Positions 39,815 through 64,000 of a stretch of DNA of 64,000 bases are shown here, in pieces. The position numbers and the translations under genes are program-made. The stretch's first letter is position 1; each line of letters begins with the position of its first letter. Origin of the DNA: a virus (taxonomy: Duplodnaviria > Caudoviricetes); the IMG/VR virus record IMGVR_UViG_3300031669_005479, positions 138,815-202,814 of that record, one strand, 5' to 3'. The notes beneath the pieces were generated by a model. It saw only the letters and a program-made list of their open reading frames with translations, was not told the origin of the DNA and ran no database searches.

Positions 39815-39889
39815 ATGAAAAATTTAACACATACACAACCCCAACCGAAACAACAGCCACAAATTGTTGAATGGGGAAGTTATGCTTGA
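39815..39889 (+). CDS. attenuator leader peptide 1 (Gln/Pro/His-rich)
   Basis: MKNLTHTQPQPKQQPQIVEWGSYA; upstream of the Pro/Pro/His/Gln/Gln/Gln tRNAs; contains GAATGGGG complementary to the terminator 5' arm. Confidence 0.85.
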   Translation: MKNLTHTQPQPKQQPQIVEWGSYA

Positions 39890-39914
39890 ATTTTTCGAAA
39901 GATGATTTTAAGTG

Positions 39915-39950
39915 AAAAAAACCCCATTCTTAATTGAATGGGGTTTTTTT
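39915..39950 (+). terminator. attenuator terminator 1
   Basis: AAAAAAACCCCATTC-ttaatt-GAATGGGGTTTTTTT. Confidence 0.9.
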
Positions 39951-40007
39951 GTAACAAAAAAATTTTTATTTCGTACAATAGTTCATTGACATATTAATAT
40001 TTTATAT

Positions 40008-40082
40008 CTAGGTGTTCCGCAGATGGATATACGGGCGTGCCTTGGAAGCACGTGTTCGCAGGTTCGAATCCTGCTACCTAGA
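40008..40082 (+). tRNA. tRNA-Pro(TGG)
   Basis: CTAGGTG/TACCTAG acceptor, CGTGC-CTTGGAA-GCACG, GTTCGAATC. Confidence 0.93.
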
Positions 40083-40167
40083 GGTAATCAAATTAAACTA
40101 CCTGCACGTGGTGATTACTGCACGGTTGAATAAACCGACCAAATGTTTAATGTATAATATATATGGT

Positions 40168-40677
40168 ATGAGTAATATAAGCGATATACTTAAAGAAGCA
40201 AAAAGTAAAGGATATTATGCCGATGAATATGGTAAAATTTATTCAGCGAAGAAATTAATTTCATTACGAAATAGAGATAATCGGTTAAATTTTACCATAA
40301 GATATTATGGAAAAAGAGTTACAATTGCCGTACATAAGTATGTTGCATATTTAAAATATGGTGATAAAATTTTTGATGATGGTATTGAAGTAAGACATTT
40401 AAATGGAAATTCGCTAGATAATTCATATGAAAATATTTTAATTGGAACTCATAGCGATAATATGCTTGATATTCCAAAAAATGTTAGAATAAAAAAAGCA
40501 ATATCAGCATCAAGTAAAAATAGAAAATTTGGTGATGATATCATTAAGAATATTATGAATGATAAAAATAATGGTATGTCATATAGTAAATTATGTGAAA
40601 AATATAATACAAGTAAATCGACATTAAGTTATTTATTTAATAATGCGTATTATAGTGGTGCTAGAAATATAGAGTAG
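40168..40677 (+). CDS. HNH homing endonuclease between two tRNA-Pro genes
   Basis: VHKYVAY...VRHLNGNSLDNSYENI...GTHSDN and a C-terminal HTH; start could be 40150. Confidence 0.88.
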   Translation: MSNISDILKEAKSKGYYADEYGKIYSAKKLISLRNRDNRLNFTIRYYGKRVTIAVHKYVAYLKYGDKIFDDGIEVRHLNGNSLDNSYENILIGTHSDNMLDIPKNVRIKKAISASSKNRKFGDDIIKNIMNDKNNGMSYSKLCEKYNTSKSTLSYLFNNAYYSGARNIE

Positions 40678-40750: not shown

Positions 40751-40824
40751 TGGTGATTGAAGCATTAAAGTGATGCGTCAGACTGTGAATCTGAAGAAGA
40801 CGGGTCAGTACCGTCCTTTCACCC
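40751..40824 (+). tRNA. tRNA-His(GTG) with an atypical T-loop
   Basis: TCAGA-CTGTGAA-TCTGA; T-arm GACGG-GTCAGTA-CCGTC. Confidence 0.85.
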
Positions 40825-41192: not shown

Positions 41193-41277
41193 TGACCTCT
41201 GGTGGAATTGGCTAAACACAACTGTCTTTGAAGCAGTCGTCCGTAAGGATTTGCAAGTTCGAGTCTTGCGAGGTCAA
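41193..41277 (+). tRNA. non-canonical tRNA(TTG), Gln anticodon with a long variable arm
   Basis: TGACCTC/GAGGTCA, ACTGT-CTTTGAA-GCAGT, V-arm TCC-GTAA-GGA, Leu-like D-arm GTGGAATTGGCTAAACAC. Confidence 0.85.
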
Positions 41278-41282
41278 CAAAA

Positions 41283-41575: not shown

Positions 41576-41959
41576 ATGAAGTATAACCTATATCTTGATG
41601 ACTTCCGTGACCCCATAGATTCTGCATATTATCTTAATAATCCTATTTATGAAACACTTCAATGGATTGTTGTTAGAAATTATGATGAATTTATTAAGTG
41701 TGTTATAGAAAATAGTATTCCAGAAGTAATATCCTTCGATCATGACTTGGCAGCAACACATTATGACCATCAATCTAATATAGAATACGATGTATTTACA
41801 GAAAAAACTGGTTATGATTGTGCTAAATGGTTTATTGATTATGTGATTGATAATAAATCGAAACTACCAAAAACAATACTTATTCATTCGATGAATCCTG
41901 CTGGAAGTGCTAATATTAAATCGCTATTTGATAGTTATATTAAATCATTAAATCTGTAA
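41576..41959 (+). CDS. cyclic-phosphate-processing receiver-like domain protein
   Basis: LYLDDFRDP, VVRNYDEF, ISFDHDL, TGYDCAKW, IHSMNPAG. Confidence 0.8.
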   Translation: MKYNLYLDDFRDPIDSAYYLNNPIYETLQWIVVRNYDEFIKCVIENSIPEVISFDHDLAATHYDHQSNIEYDVFTEKTGYDCAKWFIDYVIDNKSKLPKTILIHSMNPAGSANIKSLFDSYIKSLNL

Positions 41960-42011
41960 CAAATTTTAAATGTTTTCGTATAATCAACATATTTATATAT
42001 AAATCGATATT

Positions 42012-42932: not shown

Positions 42933-43835
42933 ATGAAAATTACTATTGATTATCTTAAAAAAATTAGGGCTTGTGATGAAGCAATTGCTAGGTTTAACAA
43001 CACACCTGAACTACATTCAGTTAATATTGAAAAATCAACTGAAATTATTGTTGGTGATGTATCATTATTTAATGATATTAATTGGTTAGTTAATAAGTTA
43101 AAAGGTAAACTGCCTGTTAGAAAGTTAACCTATAAAGGTTCTGATGGTTATTGGTCAGAAATGACTTATGATGATAATGGAAATAAGTTAACATATAAAA
43201 ATTCTGATGGTTATTGGTTAGAATATACCTATGATGAAAATGGAAAATTGTTAACCACTAAAAATTCTGATGGTTATTGGTTAGAATATACCTATGATGA
43301 TAATGGAAAATTGTTAACCACTAAAAATTCTGATGGTTATTGGGAAGAAAACACCTATGATGATAATGGAAATAAGTTAACACATAAGAAATCTAATGGT
43401 AGTTGGGAAGAAAACACCTATGATGATAATGGAAATAAGTTAACATATAAAAATTCTGATGGTTATTGGGAAGAAAACACCTATGATGATAATGGAAATA
43501 AGTTAACATATAAAAATTCTAATGGTTATTGGGAAGAAAACACCTATGATGATAATGGAAATAAGTTAACATATAAGAATTCTGATGGTTATTGGGAAGA
43601 AAACACCTATGATGATAATGGAAATTTGTTAACCACTAAAGATTCTAAAGGTTATTCGTGTGAATATACCTATGATGAAAATGGAAATAAATTAACCTAT
43701 AAGGATTCTAAAGGTTATTCGTGTGAATATACGTATGATGAAAATGGAAATAAATTAACCAATAAGGATTCTAATGACAATATTACTGATTACCCTAAAT
43801 TAAAATATGATTTGACTATTTTTGAAATAAAATAA
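42933..43835 (+). CDS. YD-like 22-aa tandem-repeat protein
   Basis: About 10 copies of GYWEENTYDDNGNKLTYKNSD (66-bp unit). Confidence 0.85.
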   Translation: MKITIDYLKKIRACDEAIARFNNTPELHSVNIEKSTEIIVGDVSLFNDINWLVNKLKGKLPVRKLTYKGSDGYWSEMTYDDNGNKLTYKNSDGYWLEYTYDENGKLLTTKNSDGYWLEYTYDDNGKLLTTKNSDGYWEENTYDDNGNKLTHKKSNGSWEENTYDDNGNKLTYKNSDGYWEENTYDDNGNKLTYKNSNGYWEENTYDDNGNKLTYKNSDGYWEENTYDDNGNLLTTKDSKGYSCEYTYDENGNKLTYKDSKGYSCEYTYDENGNKLTNKDSNDNITDYPKLKYDLTIFEIK

Positions 43836-43896
43836 TTCTAATAACTAATTGAGAATTAAGTATTTGAGAAATATATTGAAAATATTTTAAAAATAG

Positions 43897-43934
43897 TTTG
43901 CAATTATTGTAACATTTTATACCTTTGCATCGTA
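43897..43934 (+). promoter_or_regulatory. overlapping primary-sigma and ECF-like promoters of tRNA cluster 2
   Basis: TTTG-N19-TACCTTTG overlapping TGTAAC-N17-CGTA; near-identical block at 63739-63776. Confidence 0.8.
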
Positions 43935-43975
43935 TTTAGATAGAAAGAAACAAAAACAATTTAAATTATAAAACA

Positions 43976-44065
43976 ATGAAAAATTTACTCGACATATTAA
44001 TGGCAACTTTGGTGGAAGTCCTATTATGGGCAGACGCAGAGGATAAATTACGCACAGTCGGGTAA
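43976..44065 (+). CDS. attenuator leader peptide 2 (Leu/Asp/Glu/Val/Ala/Trp/Met)
   Basis: MKNLLDILMATLVEVLLWADAEDKLRTVG; ends in GTCGGGT complementary to the terminator 5' arm. Confidence 0.85.
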   Translation: MKNLLDILMATLVEVLLWADAEDKLRTVG

Positions 44066-44094
44066 TGTATATTACACACTCCTTTCTTAATAAG

Positions 44095-44129
44095 AAAAAC
44101 CCGACAAACGAAAGTAAGTCGGGTTTTTT
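44095..44129 (+). terminator. attenuator terminator 2
   Basis: AAAAACCCGAC...GTCGGGTTTTTT. Confidence 0.9.
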
Positions 44130-44169
44130 GATTTTTAGGTTGGATGTTCTTTGACATGTTGGAAATTTT

Positions 44170-44246
44170 GGTGATGTAGTTCAGTTGGCTAGAATGGGGC
44201 ACTGTCTATGCTCAGGTCGAGGGTTCGAGTCCCTTCATCACCGCCA
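44170..44246 (+). tRNA. tRNA-Asp(GTC) with encoded CCA
   Basis: GGTGATG/CATCACC-G-CCA, GGGCA-CTGTCTA-TGCTC. Confidence 0.95.
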
Positions 44247-44262
44247 AATTATAATATTAAAT

Positions 44263-44346
44263 GCGGCGTTATACAAGTGGCTAAAGTGGCAAGACCTTCA
44301 ATCTTGTATCGAAAGATTTCGAGGGGTTCGAATCCCCCACGCCGTA
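44263..44346 (+). tRNA. non-canonical tRNA(TTC), Glu anticodon with a long variable arm and C33
   Basis: GCGGCGT/ACGCCGT, CAAGA-CCTTCAA-TCTTG, V-arm ATC-GAAA-GAT, GGTTCGAATCC. Confidence 0.75.
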
Positions 44347-44441
44347 CGAAGTTCAATATGAAATATAGTGGTTTCAGAGGTTTGTTCATATTGAGGTTTA
44401 GTAATTCCAAGGTCGATAATAATGACCAAAAATCTCGCCAT

Positions 44442-44513
44442 GCTCGATTCGTCTAACGATTAGGACAAATGGTTTTCGTCCATTAAATGAGGGTTTGATT
44501 CCCTCATCGAGTA
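44442..44513 (+). tRNA. tRNA-Glu(TTC), canonical size
   Basis: GCTCGAT/ATCGAGT, AATGG-TTTTCGT-CCATT, GAGGG-TTTGATT-CCCTC. Confidence 0.9.
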
Positions 44514-44522
44514 CAATAATTT

Positions 44523-44593
44523 GGGGAATTGATGTAATGGTAGCGTGTTTGGCCTACATCCAAAACGAAATAGTTCGATTCTATTATTCCCTA
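44523..44593 (+). tRNA. tRNA-Val(TAC) with C33
   Basis: GGGGAAT/ATTCCCT, TTTGG-CCTACAT-CCAAA. Confidence 0.87.
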
Positions 44594-44604
44594 CAAAATA
44601 AATT

Positions 44605-44679
44605 GCGAGTGTAGCCGAATGGTTAATAGGCAACTGTTTTAGAAACAGAAATTTGCGGGTTCGACTCCCGCCATTCGCA
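44605..44679 (+). tRNA. tRNA-Leu(TAG) lacking the long variable arm
   Basis: GCGAGTG/CATTCGC, CTGT-TTTAGAA-ACAG, short variable loop. Confidence 0.85.
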
Positions 44680-44702
44680 CAAAGGGTTAAAAACAAAACT
44701 AT

Positions 44703-44789
44703 GGGGATGTGATGAAATTGGCGATACATGCCAGACTTAGAATCTGGTGCTAATAAACTGGCGTGTGGGTTCGAATCCCACCATCCTCA
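44703..44789 (+). tRNA. tRNA-Leu(TAG), canonical class II
   Basis: GGGGATG/CATCCTC, CCAGA-CTTAGAA-TCTGG, long V-arm. Confidence 0.95.
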
Positions 44790-44902
44790 CGTTTAGACCG
44801 TTTAGAATTTTTATTAGTAATGAAAATGCTAGTAAACATAAAAGTTGTTCAATCACATTGGATGAATTATTGACGAGAATTAAAATGTGGAATGTGAAAT
44901 AT

Positions 44903-44977
44903 GGGGCGTTAACTCAGTCTGCCTAGAGTGCTGCACTTGCAATGCAGAGGTCATCGGTTGAAATCCGATACGTTCCA
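44903..44977 (+). tRNA. tRNA-Ala(TGC)
   Basis: GGGGCGT/ACGTTCC with G3:U70, CTGCA-CTTGCAA-TGCAG. Confidence 0.94.
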
Positions 44978-45034
44978 CGAGTAGACCGTTTTAGAATTTT
45001 TTATTGACTAAGAGTAACGTAGAAAAATTCATAT

Positions 45035-45108
45035 GGCTCTGTAGCCGAACTGGAATAGGCAACTGTTTTAAAATCAGAAATTTGTGGGTTCGAGTCCCAC
45101 CAGAGCTA
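45035..45108 (+). tRNA. tRNA-Leu(TAA) lacking the long variable arm
   Basis: GGCTCTG/CAGAGCT, loop TTTAAAA; paralogous to 44605..44679. Confidence 0.83.
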
Positions 45109-45267
45109 CAAATCGTCTGGAGATTCCAGACAAAGTTTTTATAGTAAAATTTATTATTGTTTAATGAATGAAATTGAGTTACATGTTATTGATACTACAG
45201 AACAAAAATGTTTTAAAAAATGTATCTCTGAAAAGTATTTAAATATGATTATTAATATCATTAATAC

Positions 45268-45350
45268 ACGTCCGTAGGCATTGGTAAGCCAAACAGTCTC
45301 CAAAACTGCAACCCGAAAGGGTCTTGCTCGTTCGAATCGAGCTGGACGTG
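45268..45350 (+). tRNA. non-canonical tRNA-Trp(CCA) with a long variable arm and 4-bp anticodon stem
   Basis: ACGTCCG/TGGACGT-G, aCAGT-CTCCAAA-ACTGc, V-arm ACCC-GAAA-GGGT. Confidence 0.87.
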
Positions 45351-45443
45351 CTAATTTTTATAAATTTTGTAACATTTTGAATAGAGTATACGTATCATAA
45401 GAATCATTTAGTATTTTATTAATTTTGTAAAATTTATAAAGTT

Positions 45444-46181
45444 ATGTATATTATTGCAAAGAAAAACGAAAAGGATTATTATGATGGTGTTGTTGGTACC
45501 GTAGGTATTGATAAAACAATTGTGTATGAACGTAATATTATTGATGTCGAAAACAATAAAATTCCACCATTATTTAAAGAAGCAACATTATCCAATTTCG
45601 ATAATATTAAAAATAATTACTTTCATCAACTACATGACTTCAGAATTGATAAAATCCATGAAAATAAATTTCCATACGATTCATACTTTATTGTAGGATT
45701 TTGTGGAAAACTATATGTGGGTTGGAAACTTTATAGTTTTAAAAACATCAATAACGATGTGCTTATTACAATTACGTATGATTTGGATTATATCTTTGAA
45801 CTTTTTGACGAAAAAAATCGATTTGGTAATAGTCTATATGATATTGTTAGTTATATTTTAAACTATGATGCCATCGATTTGTTTAGAGAATTAAATACAC
45901 CAATTTTCATATATGATTATGATAGTAATGTGAAAAATATTAGTGGTTATTGTCGTGAATATCATAATTCAAAATTCATTATAAATCCACTATTAAAAAA
46001 CTATGAATTTTATAAAAAATTTGATAGTTTTCAAACATTTCAAGAAATAAGTATGTTTATTGGTGGAGTGTTAGGTAGTAAAGAAAAGAAAATTATTGAA
46101 GTTGAGGACAAGTATAAAATTGCACAACATGGCTTTAATAAATGGAGTTTTAGAAAAGAACCTAAAGATAAATCGATATAA
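45444..46181 (+). CDS. hypothetical phage protein
   Basis: 245-aa ORF after TGTAAC-N17-CGTA at 45368-45394. Confidence 0.75.
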   Translation: MYIIAKKNEKDYYDGVVGTVGIDKTIVYERNIIDVENNKIPPLFKEATLSNFDNIKNNYFHQLHDFRIDKIHENKFPYDSYFIVGFCGKLYVGWKLYSFKNINNDVLITITYDLDYIFELFDEKNRFGNSLYDIVSYILNYDAIDLFRELNTPIFIYDYDSNVKNISGYCREYHNSKFIINPLLKNYEFYKKFDSFQTFQEISMFIGGVLGSKEKKIIEVEDKYKIAQHGFNKWSFRKEPKDKSI

Positions 46182-46287
46182 TTTCAATATACATGAATAC
46201 TGGTATTGTAAGGAAAAATTGTCGTTACTTTTGAAATGTTAAAATTTTGTTGTTTATTTGTAACCATAAATTAATAAATATTGTGCT

Positions 46288-46725
46288 ATGTTTAATCCAG
46301 AGAGAAAAAGGGAAGAATTTGAAATAGAATTACATAATTTTATTAATTCATCTGAAGGAGATGCTTACTTTGAGAATGAAAGAATCAAAGAAGAGTTAAA
46401 ACAAATTCGTTACAAACATTTTGAAAAATTTCTTGAATCAAACGATTTTGATAAACTCATGTATCGTTTAATTCTTGAACATGATGATGAGTGGAGAGAA
46501 AAATGTTGGCATAATGGATGTGAGCCATATCCAAATAATAAATTAGGATTTGTTATTGATTATGTTACAAATAATTTTGATACCATAGATGTTCCACAAC
46601 TTCAAAATTCTTTTAATACACAAATTTGGTTTTTTAAGGGATATTATTTTAGAATAACGTTTGGACAGGGAGTTGTCTTTGATTTGTATAACGGAGACGA
46701 TTTTAGTCATTTGTTACATGCATAA
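46288..46725 (+). CDS. hypothetical protein
   Basis: 145-aa ORF. Confidence 0.7.
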   Translation: MFNPERKREEFEIELHNFINSSEGDAYFENERIKEELKQIRYKHFEKFLESNDFDKLMYRLILEHDDEWREKCWHNGCEPYPNNKLGFVIDYVTNNFDTIDVPQLQNSFNTQIWFFKGYYFRITFGQGVVFDLYNGDDFSHLLHA

Positions 46726-46825
46726 TTATTTGGCGAAGTGATGAATTGGTGGGAGGTAGAACTTGGTGGAGTTAATAAAGGTGCAGAAAGATTACGTGCT
46801 AAAACAGAAATTAAAAAAGAATTAA

Positions 46826-47017
46826 ATGAGTTTACTTTTTAGAAATTGGCTCGATGAAGGTTATTATAAAGAAGATGGTTATGATGATTTAACTCGAATT
46901 GAAGACCGTGCAGATATTCTTCGTGCGCAAAAGGAAAACACACTATATCAAAATGATGGTATGACTACCACAAAAGTAAATGATGGTGAAAATATTGAAT
47001 TATGGCAAAAGCAATAA
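46826..47017 (+). CDS. hypothetical protein
   Basis: 63-aa ORF overlapping two smaller ORFs in tandem. Confidence 0.5.
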   Translation: MSLLFRNWLDEGYYKEDGYDDLTRIEDRADILRAQKENTLYQNDGMTTTKVNDGENIELWQKQ

Positions 47018-47127
47018 AAAACAATAAATCTATACCCAAAGAGGATGATTGTAAATGTGGTAAATCTGTTAAAATAACACAAAGAAAAAATATTGGATAT
47101 AAAAAAACAATTAAAAAAAGAATATAG

Positions 47128-47202
47128 CCCCTAGTGACGTAACTTGGCAAACGTGTTCGGCTCAAACCCGAAATTTTGTGGGTTCGAATCCCACTTAGGG
47201 GA
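47128..47202 (+). tRNA. tRNA-Leu(CAA) lacking the long variable arm
   Basis: CCCCTAG/TTAGGGG, TTCGG-CTCAAAC-CCGAA, 5-nt variable loop. Confidence 0.85.
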
Positions 47203-47277
47203 CAACTAATTTAAATTTAATGTTATGAAAAAAATGTATGAAGTTTTGTAAATTGCTCTAATGCAATTGCAAAACAA

Positions 47278-47559
47278 ATGAAAAGTAAAAAAATCGTGGA
47301 CACTACCACAAATCGTGGCGAATTCAATCGTGCTTATAAATCGTATCTTGAACATGATGGTAAAATTCGTTGCACTTATTGTTCATATCATCGTGGCGAA
47401 AATAAAACCACTCATATGTATTGGGGTGATGATGAGCATATTAAATACCCTAACTGGAAATTAGTTTCAAAGTATTCTAAACGGTGGATGAAAAAACCGA
47501 TGAGAATGATTGAACGCACCAATCGATGGGGTAATAATTACGTTGAGATTAAATTTTAG
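47278..47559 (+). CDS. hypothetical basic protein (CxxC/H)
   Basis: IRCTYCSYHRGEN. Confidence 0.65.
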   Translation: MKSKKIVDTTTNRGEFNRAYKSYLEHDGKIRCTYCSYHRGENKTTHMYWGDDEHIKYPNWKLVSKYSKRWMKKPMRMIERTNRWGNNYVEIKF

Positions 47560-47568
47560 ATGCTCTTT

Positions 47569-47639
47569 GGCGACATGGTATAAAGGTAGAACACCTCTCT
47601 CATAAGGAGTTGATACGGGTTCGATTCCCGTTGTCGCTA
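47569..47639 (+). tRNA. tRNA(CAT): Met or lysidine-Ile2
   Basis: GGCGACA/TGTCGCT, loop CTCATAA, GGTTCGATTCC. Confidence 0.87.
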
Positions 47640-47680
47640 CAATCCCCTCGAATTCGAGGGGATTATAATTTCCAACATGG

Positions 47681-51461: not shown

Positions 51462-51592
51462 TTTGCTAACGGTTTTAATATAAAACGTTGCAACATAAAG
51501 GTAAATACATGTAACAAAACTTGAAATTAAACGTATAATATAATAGAAACCACAACAGCAATGTTTTATATTTGTTGTTATAAACAGTTTCA
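51462..51592. repeat. attC-like site 3 (contains an ECF-like promoter)
   Basis: TGCTAAC...ATATAAAACGTTGC / GCAATGTTTTATAT...GTTATAAAC; TGTAAC-N16-CGTA at 51510-51535. Confidence 0.8.
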
Positions 51593-54101: not shown

Positions 54102-54194
54102 ATGAGAACTTTTGGTAAATATTATTTTAGTAAAAAATCATATAAGAAACAACTTATAGGAATCGGGAATAGTATGTCCAAAAGAAAATCATAA
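54102..54194 (+). CDS. attenuator leader peptide 3 (Lys/Tyr-rich)
   Basis: MRTFGKYYFSKKSYKKQLIGIGNSMSKRKS; AATCGGG complementary to the terminator 5' arm. Confidence 0.83.
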   Translation: MRTFGKYYFSKKSYKKQLIGIGNSMSKRKS

Positions 54195-54263: not shown

Positions 54264-54350
54264 GTACCTATGGCTCAATTGGTAGAGCAACTGGCTTTTA
54301 ACCAGTGGGGTTGCTAACGCACGTTGAGGGTTCGAGTCCCTCTGGGTACA
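54264..54350 (+). tRNA. non-canonical tRNA-Lys(TTT) with a 19-nt variable region
   Basis: GTACCTA/TGGGTAC, ACTGG-CTTTTAA-CCAGT, variable region GGGGTTGCTAACGCACGTT. Confidence 0.88.
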
Positions 54351-54355
54351 CAAAT

Positions 54356-54428
54356 ATCTCAGTAGCTTAGTTGGTAGAGTAGGTGTCTCTTAAACATCGG
54401 GTCATGGGTTCGAATCCCATCTGAGGTA
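54356..54428 (+). tRNA. tRNA-Lys(CTT)
   Basis: ATCTCAG/CTGAGGT, GGTGT-CTCTTAA-ACATC. Confidence 0.92.
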
Positions 54429-54434
54429 CAATTT

Positions 54435-55745: not shown

Positions 55746-58700
55746 ATGACAAATAATATTCTTAAAAGTTTTCCCAAACAAGAGGTGGAAAAAGCAGCAT
55801 TACAATACTTTAAAGGTGATGAGTTAGCAGCAGACGTTTGGATTAAAAAATACTGTTTAAAGGATGAAAATAACTTTTATGAATTGACTCCCGATGACAT
55901 GCATCGAAGAATTGCAAAAGAAATTGCAAGAATTGAAGCAAAATATATAAATCCGCTTTCCGAAGACCAGATTTACGAAACACTAAAAAATTTTAAAAGA
56001 ATTGTGCCACAAGGCAGTCCAATGTCAGGAATTGGTAATAATTTTCAGGTAGTTTCGCTAGGAAATTGTTTTGTTGTTGGTAATGATGCTGATTCATATG
56101 GTGGAATTATTCGAATTGATGAGGAGCAAACACAATTAATGAAGCGTAGAGGTGGTGTTGGTCATGATTTGTCGATGATCAGACCAAATATGACACCAGT
56201 AAAAAACAGTGCAATTACTTCTACAGGTATCGTTCCCTTCATGGAAAGATATTCGAATAGCACAAAAGAGGTTGCACAGGATGGACGACGTGGTGCATTA
56301 ATGTTATCCGTGTCAATAAAACATCCTGATGCAGAATCGTTTATTGATGCAAAATTATTACAGGGAAAAATATCTGGTGCAAATATTTCGGTAAGAATTG
56401 ATGATGAGTTCATGAATTCGGCATTAAATGAAAAATCATATAATCAACAATATCCAATTGATGGTATCGCCAAGTATCAAAAAGAAATTGATGCATCAAA
56501 ACTTTGGAAAAAAATTGTTCACAATGCTTGGAAATCTGCCGAACCTGGTATTCTTTTTTGGGATAAAATTCTAAATGAATCAATACCTTCATGCTATGGT
56601 AAAAAATGGGTTGAAAAAAGCACAAATCCATGTGTCAGTGAAGATACATTAATATTGACAGATGATGGATATCTACCGATCAAAGAATTGGTTGGTAAAA
56701 AGGTTAATGTTTGGAACGGTGAAGAGTTTTCCGAAACCATTCCAGCAATAACTGGATATAATCAAAAAATGATTAAAATAAAATTTTCTGATGGTAGTGA
56801 ATTAAAATGTACACCATATCATAAATTCTACACTTGGAAAGGTTTTGAACGTGATGGAAAGGTAATAAAAAAGAACGGAAATGAACTTATTGTTGGTGAT
56901 AAGTTGGAAAAATATAAATTTCCAAAATTAAAACGAGATTTGAGCACTGGCCATCATATTTACATATCGACTGATAATATTGGCAATGGCTACATAACAA
57001 ATAAGGAATTTTATACTGCAGGTTTTTTTGCTGGTGACGGACATATTAAAAGAAATGATGAGTATATGATTTCATTATATGGAGTAAAAAAAGAATTAAT
57101 ACCATATTTGGAAATTATTGGTAATGAATCTGAGGATATTGCTAACGATAAAATTACGGTAAGAATAAATTTACCAGAATATTTTAAATTTAGTCCTCAA
57201 AACATACCAATTAAAAAAATAATACCAATCTATGAAAAGGGGATGCCTGAATTAGATGTGTTGAATTGGTTGGCTGGTTTAATCGATTCTGACGGTTCAC
57301 GTAATTCTGATAAAGGGTCAATATCAATTTCTTCAATAGATAAAAACTTCTTAATGCAAATTAAACTAAATATATTAAATACGTTTGGTATTAATGGAAG
57401 TGTTATTGATGAAAAGAATGGCGGTATTAAGAAAATTAAGGGAATTGAATATGAAACAAATAAATCATATAGACTAATAATTAGCGCACATAATGTTAAA
57501 AAATTATATGATTTAGGTTTAAGAACACATAGAGTTAAAATCGATGATGTTAATCCAAATCGTGATGCATCTCGATTTATAACTGTTGAATCAATTGAAT
57601 CTATCGATGATGCAGACGTTGTATATTGTTTTACTGAAGAAAAACGTGGGAGAGGTTGCTTTAATGGCGTGGTTACTGGACAATGTGGCGAATTGCCGTT
57701 GCCACCATATGATTCATGTAGATTGGTGTGCATGAATTTATATGGTTACGTTGTAAATCCTTTTACAGTAAATGCGTATTTTGATGAGGAAGCATTTAGT
57801 AGAGATGTACAGATTGCTATGAGGTATATGGATGATATTGTAGACCTAGAAGTTGAAAAAATCGATACTATTTTATTGAAAATTCAATCCGACCCAGAAT
57901 CAGACGAAATTAAGTTAGTTGAAAAGAATTTATGGGAAAAAATTCGTGGTATGGCACTTGAAGGTAGGAGAACTGGCTTAGGCGTTACTGCAGAAGGAGA
58001 TATGCTTGCCGCACTTGGCTTACGATATGGTACAGAAGAGGCGACAATATTCAGTGAAAATGTGCATAAGGGACTTAAATTAAACGCATATCGCTCATCA
58101 GTTACAATGGCTAAAGAACGTGGTGCTTTTCCAATTTATAATCATAATTTAGAATCAAGCAATCCGTTTATATTAAGAATTTTAGAAGAAGACCCACAAT
58201 TACATTACGATATGTGGACTTATGGTCGTAGAAATATTGCACTGCTAACTATTGCACCAACTGGTAGTGCAAGCTTAATGACACAAACAACATCAGGCAT
58301 TGAACCAGCATTTTTACCTGTTTATATGCGTAGACGTAAGATTAATCCACAAGAAAAGGATGTTCGTGTGGATTTTATTGATGATGAGGGTATTTCATGG
58401 ATGCAATATCCAGTATTTCATCATAAGTTTGAAATATGGTTAGAAGTTGAGGGATATGATGTTAATGTTGTTAAAACCATGAGCAAAGAACAACTTGACG
58501 AAATTGTGAAGAAATCACCCTATTATAAAGCAACATCAAATGACGTTGATTGGGTGATGAAAGTTATAATGCAAGGTAAAATACAAAAACATATTGACCA
58601 TAGCATTTCTGTTACGGTTAATCTTCCAGAATCGGTGAGTGAAGAAACTGTTGCAAAAGTATATGAAACTGGTTGGAAATCTGGTTGCAAAGGCATTACT

Positions 58701-59354
58701 GTTTATCGTGATGGTAGTAGAAATGGTGTACTTGTTGGTGCAGAAGATAATAAAAAAGAAAATTTTCACGAGAATCACACACCCAAAAGACCAAAAAGAT
58801 TGAAGGGTGAAATTCACAAATTTCAAAATAATTTGGAAAAATGGATTGCCGTTGTTGGCCTACGTGATGGTAGACCATATGAAATTTTCACTGGAAGACT
58901 TGAAAATGGATTAAGTAAATTACCTCCAAACATTAAAGACTGTGAAGTTGTTAAACAAATATTTGAAGTAGAGGAAATGGATGAGGATGGTAAAATGATT
59001 AAAGTTAGAAAAAAAAGATACGATATTGAATATATTGATAGTAATGGCGAAAAACAAATACATACTGGTTTAAACCACGCATTTAATCCTGAATATTGGA
59101 ACTATGCAAAACTTTTTTCAGGTGTACTTCGACATGGTATGCCAATTATTTATGTCTATCAACTAATTAATTCTATGAATCTAAATAGTGATCATTTGAA
59201 TACGTGGAAAAATGGCGTTGCACGTACAATAAAAAAGTACATTAAGGACGGTGAAAAAATTGAAGGTAAATGTCCTGAATGTGGTAGTGAACATTTAGAA
59301 TTTAAAGAGGGATGTTTAATCTGTATGTCCTGTGGTAGTTCAAAATGTAACTAA
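55746..59354 (+). CDS. nrdJ: class II (adenosylcobalamin-dependent) ribonucleotide reductase with intein
   Basis: SLGNCFV, RRGGVG, TNP/CGE active site split by the intein, RRTGLG, TIAPTG, KGITVYRDGS, C-terminal CPECG...CMSCG. Confidence 0.92.
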   Translation: MTNNILKSFPKQEVEKAALQYFKGDELAADVWIKKYCLKDENNFYELTPDDMHRRIAKEIARIEAKYINPLSEDQIYETLKNFKRIVPQGSPMSGIGNNFQVVSLGNCFVVGNDADSYGGIIRIDEEQTQLMKRRGGVGHDLSMIRPNMTPVKNSAITSTGIVPFMERYSNSTKEVAQDGRRGALMLSVSIKHPDAESFIDAKLLQGKISGANISVRIDDEFMNSALNEKSYNQQYPIDGIAKYQKEIDASKLWKKIVHNAWKSAEPGILFWDKILNESIPSCYGKKWVEKSTNPCVSEDTLILTDDGYLPIKELVGKKVNVWNGEEFSETIPAITGYNQKMIKIKFSDGSELKCTPYHKFYTWKGFERDGKVIKKNGNELIVGDKLEKYKFPKLKRDLSTGHHIYISTDNIGNGYITNKEFYTAGFFAGDGHIKRNDEYMISLYGVKKELIPYLEIIGNESEDIANDKITVRINLPEYFKFSPQNIPIKKIIPIYEKGMPELDVLNWLAGLIDSDGSRNSDKGSISISSIDKNFLMQIKLNILNTFGINGSVIDEKNGGIKKIKGIEYETNKSYRLIISAHNVKKLYDLGLRTHRVKIDDVNPNRDASRFITVESIESIDDADVVYCFTEEKRGRGCFNGVVTGQCGELPLPPYDSCRLVCMNLYGYVVNPFTVNAYFDEEAFSRDVQIAMRYMDDIVDLEVEKIDTILLKIQSDPESDEIKLVEKNLWEKIRGMALEGRRTGLGVTAEGDMLAALGLRYGTEEATIFSENVHKGLKLNAYRSSVTMAKERGAFPIYNHNLESSNPFILRILEEDPQLHYDMWTYGRRNIALLTIAPTGSASLMTQTTSGIEPAFLPVYMRRRKINPQEKDVRVDFIDDEGISWMQYPVFHHKFEIWLEVEGYDVNVVKTMSKEQLDEIVKKSPYYKATSNDVDWVMKVIMQGKIQKHIDHSISVTVNLPESVSEETVAKVYETGWKSGCKGITVYRDGSRNGVLVGAEDNKKENFHENHTPKRPKRLKGEIHKFQNNLEKWIAVVGLRDGRPYEIFTGRLENGLSKLPPNIKDCEVVKQIFEVEEMDEDGKMIKVRKKRYDIEYIDSNGEKQIHTGLNHAFNPEYWNYAKLFSGVLRHGMPIIYVYQLINSMNLNSDHLNTWKNGVARTIKKYIKDGEKIEGKCPECGSEHLEFKEGCLICMSCGSSKCN
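56631..57683 (+). mobile_element. Gln-terminal LAGLIDADG intein (351 aa) at the RNR active-site Cys
   Basis: Starts CVSEDT, ends GVVTGQ followed by Cys; motifs AGFFAGDG and LAGLIDSDG. Confidence 0.92.
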
Positions 59355-63738: not shown

Positions 63739-63776
63739 TTTGCAATTATTGTAACATTTTATACCTTTGCAACGTA
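63739..63776 (+). promoter_or_regulatory. overlapping primary-sigma and ECF-like promoters of leader 4
   Basis: TTTG-N19-TACCTTTG plus TGTAAC-N17-CGTA; near copy of 43897-43934. Confidence 0.8.
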
Positions 63777-63821
63777 TTTAGATGAAAGTAGATTTGAATT
63801 ATAACTTTTAATTTTAAAAAA

Positions 63822-63944
63822 ATGAAAACACGAACAACAAATATTACCATTAGCACATCGATTATTAGTCGTAATGGAAGTTCTATATTCTGTTCAAATT
63901 TTACAGGCAGAAATATTGATGTTATCGGGTTATGGTTTTCATAA
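63822..63944 (+). CDS. attenuator leader peptide 4 (Thr/Ile/Ser/Arg/Asn/Gly/Phe/Cys)
   Basis: MKTRTTNITISTSIISRNGSSIFCSNFTGRNIDVIGLWFS; ATCGGGTT complementary to the terminator 5' arm. Confidence 0.8.
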   Translation: MKTRTTNITISTSIISRNGSSIFCSNFTGRNIDVIGLWFS

Positions 63945-63968
63945 AAGTAAAAGAAAACTAATAAAGTC

Positions 63969-64000
63969 AAAAACCCGATTCGAAAGATTCGGGTTTTTTT
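63969..64000 (+). terminator. attenuator terminator 4
   Basis: AAAAACCCGA-ttcgaaagat-TCGGGTTTTTTT. Confidence 0.9.

Follow-up and report, generated by a model that had tools for sequence, protein, structure and literature searches.

The stretch analysed here (64,000 nt, referred to as the window) is the final 64 kb of a 202.8-kb IMG/VR virus contig with a G+C content of about 30%, derived from an uncultured phage. Directly 3′ of a gene for a 300-aa protein of tandem RHS/YD repeats (Pfam RHS_repeat; 42933–43835), it carries a putative promoter region, a short reading frame, an intrinsic terminator and a tRNA cluster, with two further tRNA genes at a distance. We refer to the leader segment and the cluster behind it as unit 2 and cluster 2; the features are as follows:

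43897–43938, plus strand: putative promoter region of leader 2, in which TTTG-N19-TACCTTTG (43897–43927) is overlapped by TGTAACA (43908–43914)-N16-CGTATTTA (43931–43938)
43976–44065, plus strand: leader ORF 2, 29 codons and a TAA stop, read from the first ATG after an in-frame stop
43985–43993, plus strand: region 1, TTACTCGAC, codons 4–6 of the leader, which pairs with region 2 in folds without a ribosome (MFE fold, RNAalifold)
44021–44044, plus strand: eight consecutive codons read by the cluster (codons 16–23, CTA TTA TGG GCA GAC GCA GAG GAT), nearly invariant including synonymous sites
44057–44065, plus strand: region 2, the putative anti-terminator, in which GTCGGGT copies the 3′ arm of the terminator; it overlaps the last two codons and the stop
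44079–44090, plus strand: conserved spacer CTCCTTTCTTAA, predicted from the folds to form a small hairpin in the anti-terminator loop or, when the terminator is formed, to pair with the AGAAAG in the 5′ UTR
44094–44129, plus strand: intrinsic terminator (regions 3 and 4) with a 12-bp stem, a 12-nt loop and a T run (MFE fold, nine-genome comparison)
44146–44164, plus strand: 19-nt motif GTTCTTTGACATGTTGGAA, 5 nt 5′ of tRNA-Asp
44170–45351, plus strand: tRNA cluster 2, the proposed target of regulation, with Asp, Glu, Glu, Val, Leu-UAG, Leu-UAG, Ala, Leu-UAA and Trp genes (ARAGORN, Rfam)
45368–45398, plus strand: promoter-like box TGTAACA-N16-CGTATCAT, directly after tRNA-Trp and ahead of a 245-aa ORF
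47128–47203, plus strand: distal tRNA with a Leu-CAA anticodon, a candidate member only (ARAGORN, Rfam)
47569–47640, plus strand: distal CAU tRNA (Met or Ile2), likewise a candidate member only (ARAGORN, Rfam)

Relatives were gathered with the protein encoded 3′ of the cluster, with two DNA patterns and by searches inside the matched records, and were fetched whole. This gave eight related phage contigs, among them a complete 349-kb genome (G001). As a query, the pattern TATTATGGGCAGAYNNNGA matched mainly unrelated sequences and contributed a single new genuine homologue, L040. Among 50,697 deposited phage records, queries with the region and with a neighbouring 689-aa protein returned tRNA-to-tRNA matches or none, and neither found a cultured relative. 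Public sequencing runs containing the phage are DNA or probably DNA, including three wastewater runs labelled “RNA-Seq”; one contig from the public runs starts 5′ of the leader promoter. Because the nine genomes (the window and its eight relatives) are kin, counts across them are not independent, and what counts as independent is the match of four leader classes to four clusters.

Whole-contig comparison showed that four tRNA clusters in identical order are common to the eight relatives: Pro, His and Gln; then Asp, Glu, Val, Leu, Ala and Trp; Lys and Tyr; and finally Thr, Cys, Ile, Ser, Phe, Gly, Asn and Arg. Cluster 2 occupies the same place in all eight, in most of them with Leu-CAA and CAU tRNA genes at a distance behind it. 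In the window, ARAGORN and Rfam assign its anticodons as Asp-GUC, Glu-UUC (two genes), Val-UAC, Leu-UAG (two genes), Ala-UGC, Leu-UAA and Trp-CCA. In cluster 1, the tRNA-His gene (40753–40823) was missed by ARAGORN and detected by Rfam, and its anticodon loop contains GUG. An ORF for an HNH endonuclease (Pfam HNH_3; 40012–40677) lies between the two tRNA-Pro genes, and similar ORFs interrupt the clusters of relatives.

The terminator of unit 2 (arms 44094–44105 and 44118–44129) is separated from the leader frame by a 28-nt spacer and from tRNA-Asp by 40 nt. Its helix is 99% paired in the nine genomes, with compensatory change at two pairs. The first-pass annotation had placed a segment, GTCGGGT, at 44057–44063 that pairs with ACCCGAC of the terminator; these coordinates were confirmed, the partner lying at 44099–44105. 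Pairing of the frame end with the 5′ arm of the terminator beats 198 of 200 dinucleotide shuffles, and the GTCGGGT/ACCCGAC helix (2:3) has a predicted dG of -13.4 to -13.7 kcal/mol. In the nine-genome alignment, helix 2:3 of leader 2 is 98% paired with two compensatory pairs. When this helix and the terminator were slid as controls, pairing fell to 24–69%. The covariation was traced to G006, where all three copies in leader 2 read GTCGAG/CTCGAC, as opposed to GTCGGG/CCCGAC elsewhere. Inside leader 2, the 2:3 covariation thus amounts to essentially one lineage; most of the covariation as a whole lies between paralogous classes.

A second helix, 1:2, is predicted to join 43985–43993 to 44057–44065. 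In the nine genomes 89% of its cells are paired and no compensatory change was seen; in G003 it is broken. RNAalifold recovered both helix 1:2 and the terminator unaided.

The leader frame itself is conserved: its ATG and reading frame are present in nine genomes, and three of the four alignment gaps within it are 3 bases long, the fourth being a single base near the 3′ end, where G006 diverges. The earlier description of residues 4–23 as 18 of 20 L, D, M, A, V, E or W is accurate, the exceptions being I7 and T11. Of the 28 residues after Met1, 19 are amino acids that the cluster serves (six in all), where 8.7 would be expected (p = 6.5e-5). At the codon level, and with conservative wobble, the proximal tRNAs read 15 of codons 4–23, compared with a background of 25% (p = 4e-6). 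The match is densest in codons 16–23, which correspond in an unbroken run to Leu-UAG, Leu-UAA, Trp, Ala, Asp, Ala, Glu and Asp. A sensor of specific codons would need the near-invariance seen here, and a constraint on RNA structure could yield the same conservation. In the variable codons 9–15, the order of the residues is shuffled among genomes while the amino-acid set is retained, with about 78% of residues within it. Four leader codons, CTC and three GTC, have no conservative-wobble decoder in the window’s cluster 2, and a direct decoder of CTC was not found anywhere in the window. The suggestion that the Leu codons TTA, CTA and TTG answer to Leu-UAA, Leu-UAG and Leu-CAA, respectively, holds in part: the cluster reads TTA and CTA, but TTG is already readable by Leu-UAA and does not call for the distal gene.

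The position of these codons relative to region 2 fits a stalling ribosome. Since a ribosome with codon n in its A site covers about 12–13 nt downstream, region 2 would stay free for stalls up to codon 23; the run at 44021–44044 ends 13 nt 5′ of region 2 and would be the last stall position that frees it. Matching residues are concentrated accordingly: in non-identical leader-2 units they make up 76% of the sensor zone and 38% of the tail, and in the window’s leader 2 they number 17 of 22 and 2 of 6, respectively. The same contrast was found in the other three leader classes. In six of nine leader-2 units, the stop codon abuts region 2. We also folded the leader with the footprint of a ribosome held single-stranded. 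The fold without a ribosome contained helix 1:2 and the terminator; with the A site at codon 5, 8, 12, 16, 20 or 23, helix 2:3 formed; and with the ribosome at the stop codon, the terminator returned.

Taken together, these data make it quite probable that 43897–44129 is a ribosome-mediated (leader-peptide) transcription attenuator gating the nine-tRNA cluster at 44170–45351. In this model, transcription would begin near 43897–43938 and a ribosome would load onto the 29-codon leader. With fast decoding of the Leu, Asp, Ala, Val, Glu and Trp codons, it would reach the stop codon and mask GTCGGGT, so that the hairpin at 44094–44129 could form and RNA polymerase would halt 5′ of the tRNA genes. 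If no ribosome were present, region 1 (43985–43993) would sequester region 2, and the terminator would form as well. When charged tRNAs are scarce, a stall at any of codons 4–23 would leave region 2 free as region 3 (ACCCGAC) emerges; the two would pair, preventing the terminator and allowing transcription of the tRNA genes. Fresh tRNAs would then accelerate leader translation and turn the unit off, so that decoding capacity would be under negative feedback. The comparison itself shows the anatomy of the unit and its conservation, the covariation of helices 2:3 and 3:4, their restriction to tRNA clusters and the match of codons to tRNAs; translation of the leader, termination, read-through in vivo and the physiological signal are predictions. 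Candidate signals are a host tRNA pool that falls short of the codon usage of the phage, depletion of tRNAs by a host defence, and amino-acid starvation.

The window contains four units built alike, unit 2 among them, with leaders that start at 39816, 43976, 54102 and 63823. The other three are:

39816–39950, unit 1: leader 39816–39890 and terminator 39917–39950, 5′ of the Pro/Pro/His/Gln cluster
54102–54194, unit 3: leader, 5′ of the Lys cluster
63823–64000, unit 4: leader 63823–63945 and a terminator reaching up to 64000, at the cut end of the contig

Across the nine genomes we counted 30 such units, each consisting of an ATG frame of 18–42 codons and a strong terminator 12–180 nt 5′ of the first tRNA. 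The anti-terminator copy, a segment of 7–10 nt, is significant against dinucleotide shuffles in 27 of them; three leader-4 units (G002, G007 and G008) have a weak complement or none. Wherever the terminator differs among the nine genomes, the copy is altered in step. Thus, leader 1 of G003 has the stem CCGTTCA/TGAACGG and a corresponding copy, and in leader 3 of G002, where CCGGTCTTA pairs with TAAGACTGG, the copy matches too. As a specificity control, about 70 terminator-like hairpins in two genomes were scored, with both strands read. Upstream complements at the strong end of the range (dG -12 or lower, z -3.5 or lower) occurred only at terminators preceding tRNA clusters, and the identical hairpins on the opposite strand scored at background. 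Two of the eight tRNA-cluster terminators scored lower because the script had shortened their arm.

Each leader is enriched 1.5- to 6.5-fold in the amino acids of its own cluster and depleted in those of the other clusters. The true pairing of leaders with clusters ranks first among all permutations in nine of nine genomes (1/24 in the complete genome). Leader 4 is cut off from its cluster by the contig end. It abounds in T, I, S, N, R, F, C and G residues, and in six relatives the homologous leader precedes tRNAs for Thr, Cys, Ile, Ser, Phe, Gly, Asn and Arg. In this out-of-sample test, which held, the make-up of leader 4 gave a correct forecast of the tRNAs behind its homologues. In addition, cluster 1 of G005 contains one more tRNA, Arg-ACG, and leader 1 of the same genome one more CGC codon, a case of co-evolution in a single lineage. 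In the window, leader 3 (54102–54194) keeps three Tyr codons and no Tyr tRNA was found in cluster 3 (54264–54429); Tyr-GUA adjoins Lys in every relative that has this cluster.

Together, the four leaders cover all 20 amino acids. They could accordingly constitute a four-channel sensor of decoding capacity, in which each channel switches on its own tRNA block when the matching decoders run short; we see this broader proposal as evenly poised between true and false. Shortage could arise from cleavage or depletion of host tRNAs by an anti-phage defence or from phage codon usage exceeding the host pool, and each block would be a direct negative feedback loop whose tRNA product is the very thing that its sensor measures.

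The leader could instead respond to something other than the supply of cognate tRNAs, for example through arrest by the nascent peptide at the invariant LLWAD, through the general translation state of the infected cell, or through a phage or host protein bound to the RNA blocks. The block CCTATTATGGGCAGA, invariant even at synonymous sites and able to form a small hairpin, would fit such a signal, as would two further conserved blocks without a role in the attenuator model, CTCCTTTCTTAA and the 19-nt motif. However, a different signal leaves unexplained why each of four leaders of different composition fits its own cluster, why the leader-4 prediction was borne out, why an Arg codon and an Arg tRNA were gained jointly, and why composition stays constant at variable codons despite their shuffled order. 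We consider a real switch with such an input improbable. As a separate observation, the spacer CTCCTTTCTTAA (CACCTCCTTTCTT in G001) is similar to the 3′ end of 16S rRNA.

By its consensus, 43897–43938 is a candidate promoter: TTTG-N19-TACCTTTG follows what we take to be the -33/-7 pattern of the Bacteroidota type. The region is 82% identical to the leader-4 promoter (63739–63769), is conserved in eight relatives and is separated from the leader-2 ATG by an A-rich untranslated stretch. Scans of the whole window added little, as a sigma-70 search gave an uninformative 108 sites against 107 expected and the full TTTG-N18-21-TAnnTTTG pattern was not enriched (7 versus 4.9 expected). A further promoter-like box, TGTAACA-N16-CGTATAAT, distinct from the TTTG-N19-TAnnTTTG pattern, recurs at 39950–39979, 41955–41984, 45368–45398 and 51510–51539 and also within the leader promoters (43908–43938 and 63750–63780). 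The copy at 39950–39979, between the leader-1 terminator and tRNA-Pro, may be a bypass promoter.

Near-exact copies of the 19-nt motif GTTCTTTGACATGTTGGAA occur in the nine genomes only 4–8 nt 5′ of tRNA-Asp and tRNA-Cys. The motif is also present at 39981–39999 in the window and in the relatives G001, G002, G004, G006, G007 and G008. It resembles region 1 of the leader (TTACTCGACATATTG). Read as the -35 box of a sigma-70 promoter, it lacks a correctly spaced -10 box and the start would lie within the tRNA, and we rejected this assignment. Two to three sites per genome are too few for a general promoter; possible roles of the motif are a processing site and a dedicated start signal.

These elements bear on a plainer explanation, namely that leader 2 is an ordinary small gene with its own terminator and that the tRNAs are transcribed from a separate promoter 3′ of 44129, the codon match and the arm copy being functionless. 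The conserved motif 5 nt 5′ of tRNA-Asp would suit such a promoter, as would the TGTAACA-type boxes in the terminator–tRNA gap of the window’s unit 1 (39950–39979) and of unit 2 in G001 and G006, and the leader-2 peptide, hydrophobic and acidic, could be a small protein. On the other hand, no promoter box was seen between 44130 and 44169 of the window, the rarity of the motif speaks against it, and a Pfam search with the leader-2 peptide returned no family. Moreover, several lineages and classes show the arm copy changing in concert with the terminator, and other terminators lack such a copy; the four leader peptides share the match to their clusters but no physicochemical character. For an ordinary gene we see very little probability. 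A type-I-toxin-like small hydrophobic peptide was likewise considered and discarded, since the three sister leaders encode polar or basic peptides. Nevertheless, the 19-nt motif and the promoter-like boxes in some of the gaps mean that the attenuator may not be the sole route to tRNA expression.

How far a transcript controlled by the attenuator would extend is a separate matter. The first-pass annotation had matched an internal ATG or ATA codon of the leader to the CAU tRNA at 47569 and suggested that the controlled transcript runs for about 3.5 kb, which would include the four intervening ORFs (none between Trp and the distal tRNAs has a Pfam family), Leu-CAA (47128) and the CAU tRNA. That argument does not support the extension: a stretch of 28 codons would contain one or more ATG or ATA codons by chance with p = 0.71. 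With TTG readable by Leu-UAA, the distal tRNAs explain one extra codon only, the ATG, and TTG occurs in just five of nine leaders. Several features of the gene arrangement would fit a long transcript. Every gene from 43897 to 47665 has the same orientation; a search of 44130–47640 gave no strong intrinsic terminator, only a weak hairpin at 45115–45131; and a palindromic hairpin at 47644–47661 ends the block before convergent genes. In most relatives Leu-CAA and the CAU tRNA stand behind cluster 2, in none do they have a leader unit of their own, and in G002 Leu-CAA is inside cluster 2. Against this, the distance from Trp to Leu-CAA ranges from 0 to 11 kb among relatives, and the box at 45368–45398 has equivalents ahead of the homologous ORF in L004 and L005. 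Because this box lies right after tRNA-Trp and is conserved in two relatives, the distal genes may own a promoter and be driven from it independently. We regard control of one 3.5-kb transcript as doubtful. The first-pass reading of an attenuator is hence retained for the leader matched to Asp/Glu/Val/Leu/Ala/Trp and for the GTCGGGT anti-terminator, where comparative evidence strongly supports it, and not for the distal extension, which leader composition does not support. The CAU tRNA itself has a G1–U72 wobble pair in the acceptor stem, without the C1×A72 mismatch of initiators, and groups with the distal CAU tRNAs of G006 and G007.

Rfam searches found no leader family at the gathering score, and at E values up to 10 returned only tRNAs and chance-level matches; the best leader match, Trp_leader, reached 14.3 bits against a gathering score of 41 (E = 2.8). 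The T-box model gave no match to 43880–44175 even at E up to 10. The multivalent leader-peptide attenuators of E. coli include thrL, ilvL/ivbL, leuL, hisL and trpL (Rfam Thr_leader, Leu_leader, His_leader and Trp_leader). Like these, unit 2 combines a putative promoter, a short frame rich in regulatory codons and an intrinsic terminator 5′ of the genes to be regulated. As in amino-acid operon leaders, the stop codon is placed for masking of region 2, and helices 2:3 and 3:4 exclude one another, with 1:2 as a predicted third; as in thrL and ilvL, one leader would sense several amino acids. Unlike these systems, it precedes tRNA genes rather than enzymes, so that the product would feed back directly on the sensor; leader 2 would sense six amino acids together; and the unit is phage-borne, belonging to a set of four leaders that jointly cover all 20 amino acids. 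It also has no sequence or structure match to the Rfam leader models. Unit 2 thus appears to have the structure of a leader-peptide attenuator outside the curated families, one that would regulate tRNAs and not enzymes.

Other systems couple translation to its own apparatus. The leader peptide pheM attenuates the E. coli pheST operon for phenylalanyl-tRNA synthetase, and, as proposed for unit 2, a component of the translation apparatus is controlled by decoding of its cognate codons; yet pheM serves a cellular synthetase operon and a single amino acid, whereas here the targets would be the tRNAs themselves, in a phage. In Firmicutes, the T-box senses uncharged tRNA by direct binding, for which it uses a specifier codon and the T-box sequence, and needs no translation. 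It likewise uses a choice between terminator and anti-terminator to couple tRNA status to genes of translation and aminoacylation, but unit 2 has a conserved translatable frame and no T-box match. In layout, the clusters resemble those of T4, T5 and jumbo phages, which are co-oriented tRNA arrays mixed with small ORFs and homing-endonuclease genes. We know of no report of leader-peptide attenuators ahead of those clusters, and a full-text literature search found no published account of tRNA genes under leader-peptide control. Phage tRNAs are commonly regarded as constitutive cargo, and the regulation of phages’ own tRNA genes is, to our knowledge, largely unknown.

If the model is correct, unit 2 would, as far as the literature search shows, be the first case in which tRNA synthesis is governed by the decoding speed of those tRNAs’ own codons, and would act as a simple homeostat of translation capacity during infection. 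The leader would then also serve as a readable genomic label of the tRNAs intended from a cluster, as in the leader-4 prediction, and would provide a testable link to tRNA-depleting host defences. At about 230 nt, the units are compact and are potential sensors of codon-specific decoding.

Several tRNA genes in and around these clusters depart from the usual form. Bacterial tRNA-Leu has a long variable arm. Three tRNAs with Leu anticodons are only 75–76 nt long (UAG 44605–44680, UAA 45035–45109 and CAA 47128–47203) and lack this arm; they keep the long D loop and, where checked (44605–44680), A73. A normal 88-nt Leu-UAG at 44703–44790 adjoins them. Conversely, tRNAs for Gln, Glu, Trp and Lys, normally about 75 nt, are encoded by genes of 84–88 nt (Gln 41193–41278, Glu 44263–44347, Trp 45268–45351 and Lys 54264–54351), which may carry insertions or small introns; the long Glu gene scores just 36.6 bits in Rfam. 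Further along the window, a 1202-aa ribonucleotide-reductase-like ORF (55746–59354) appears on visual inspection to contain an interrupting intein-like insert. In the complete genome G001, a tRNA with a CUA anticodon, of the amber suppressor type, lies a few kb past cluster 4 (268386–268463; L074:8386–8463).
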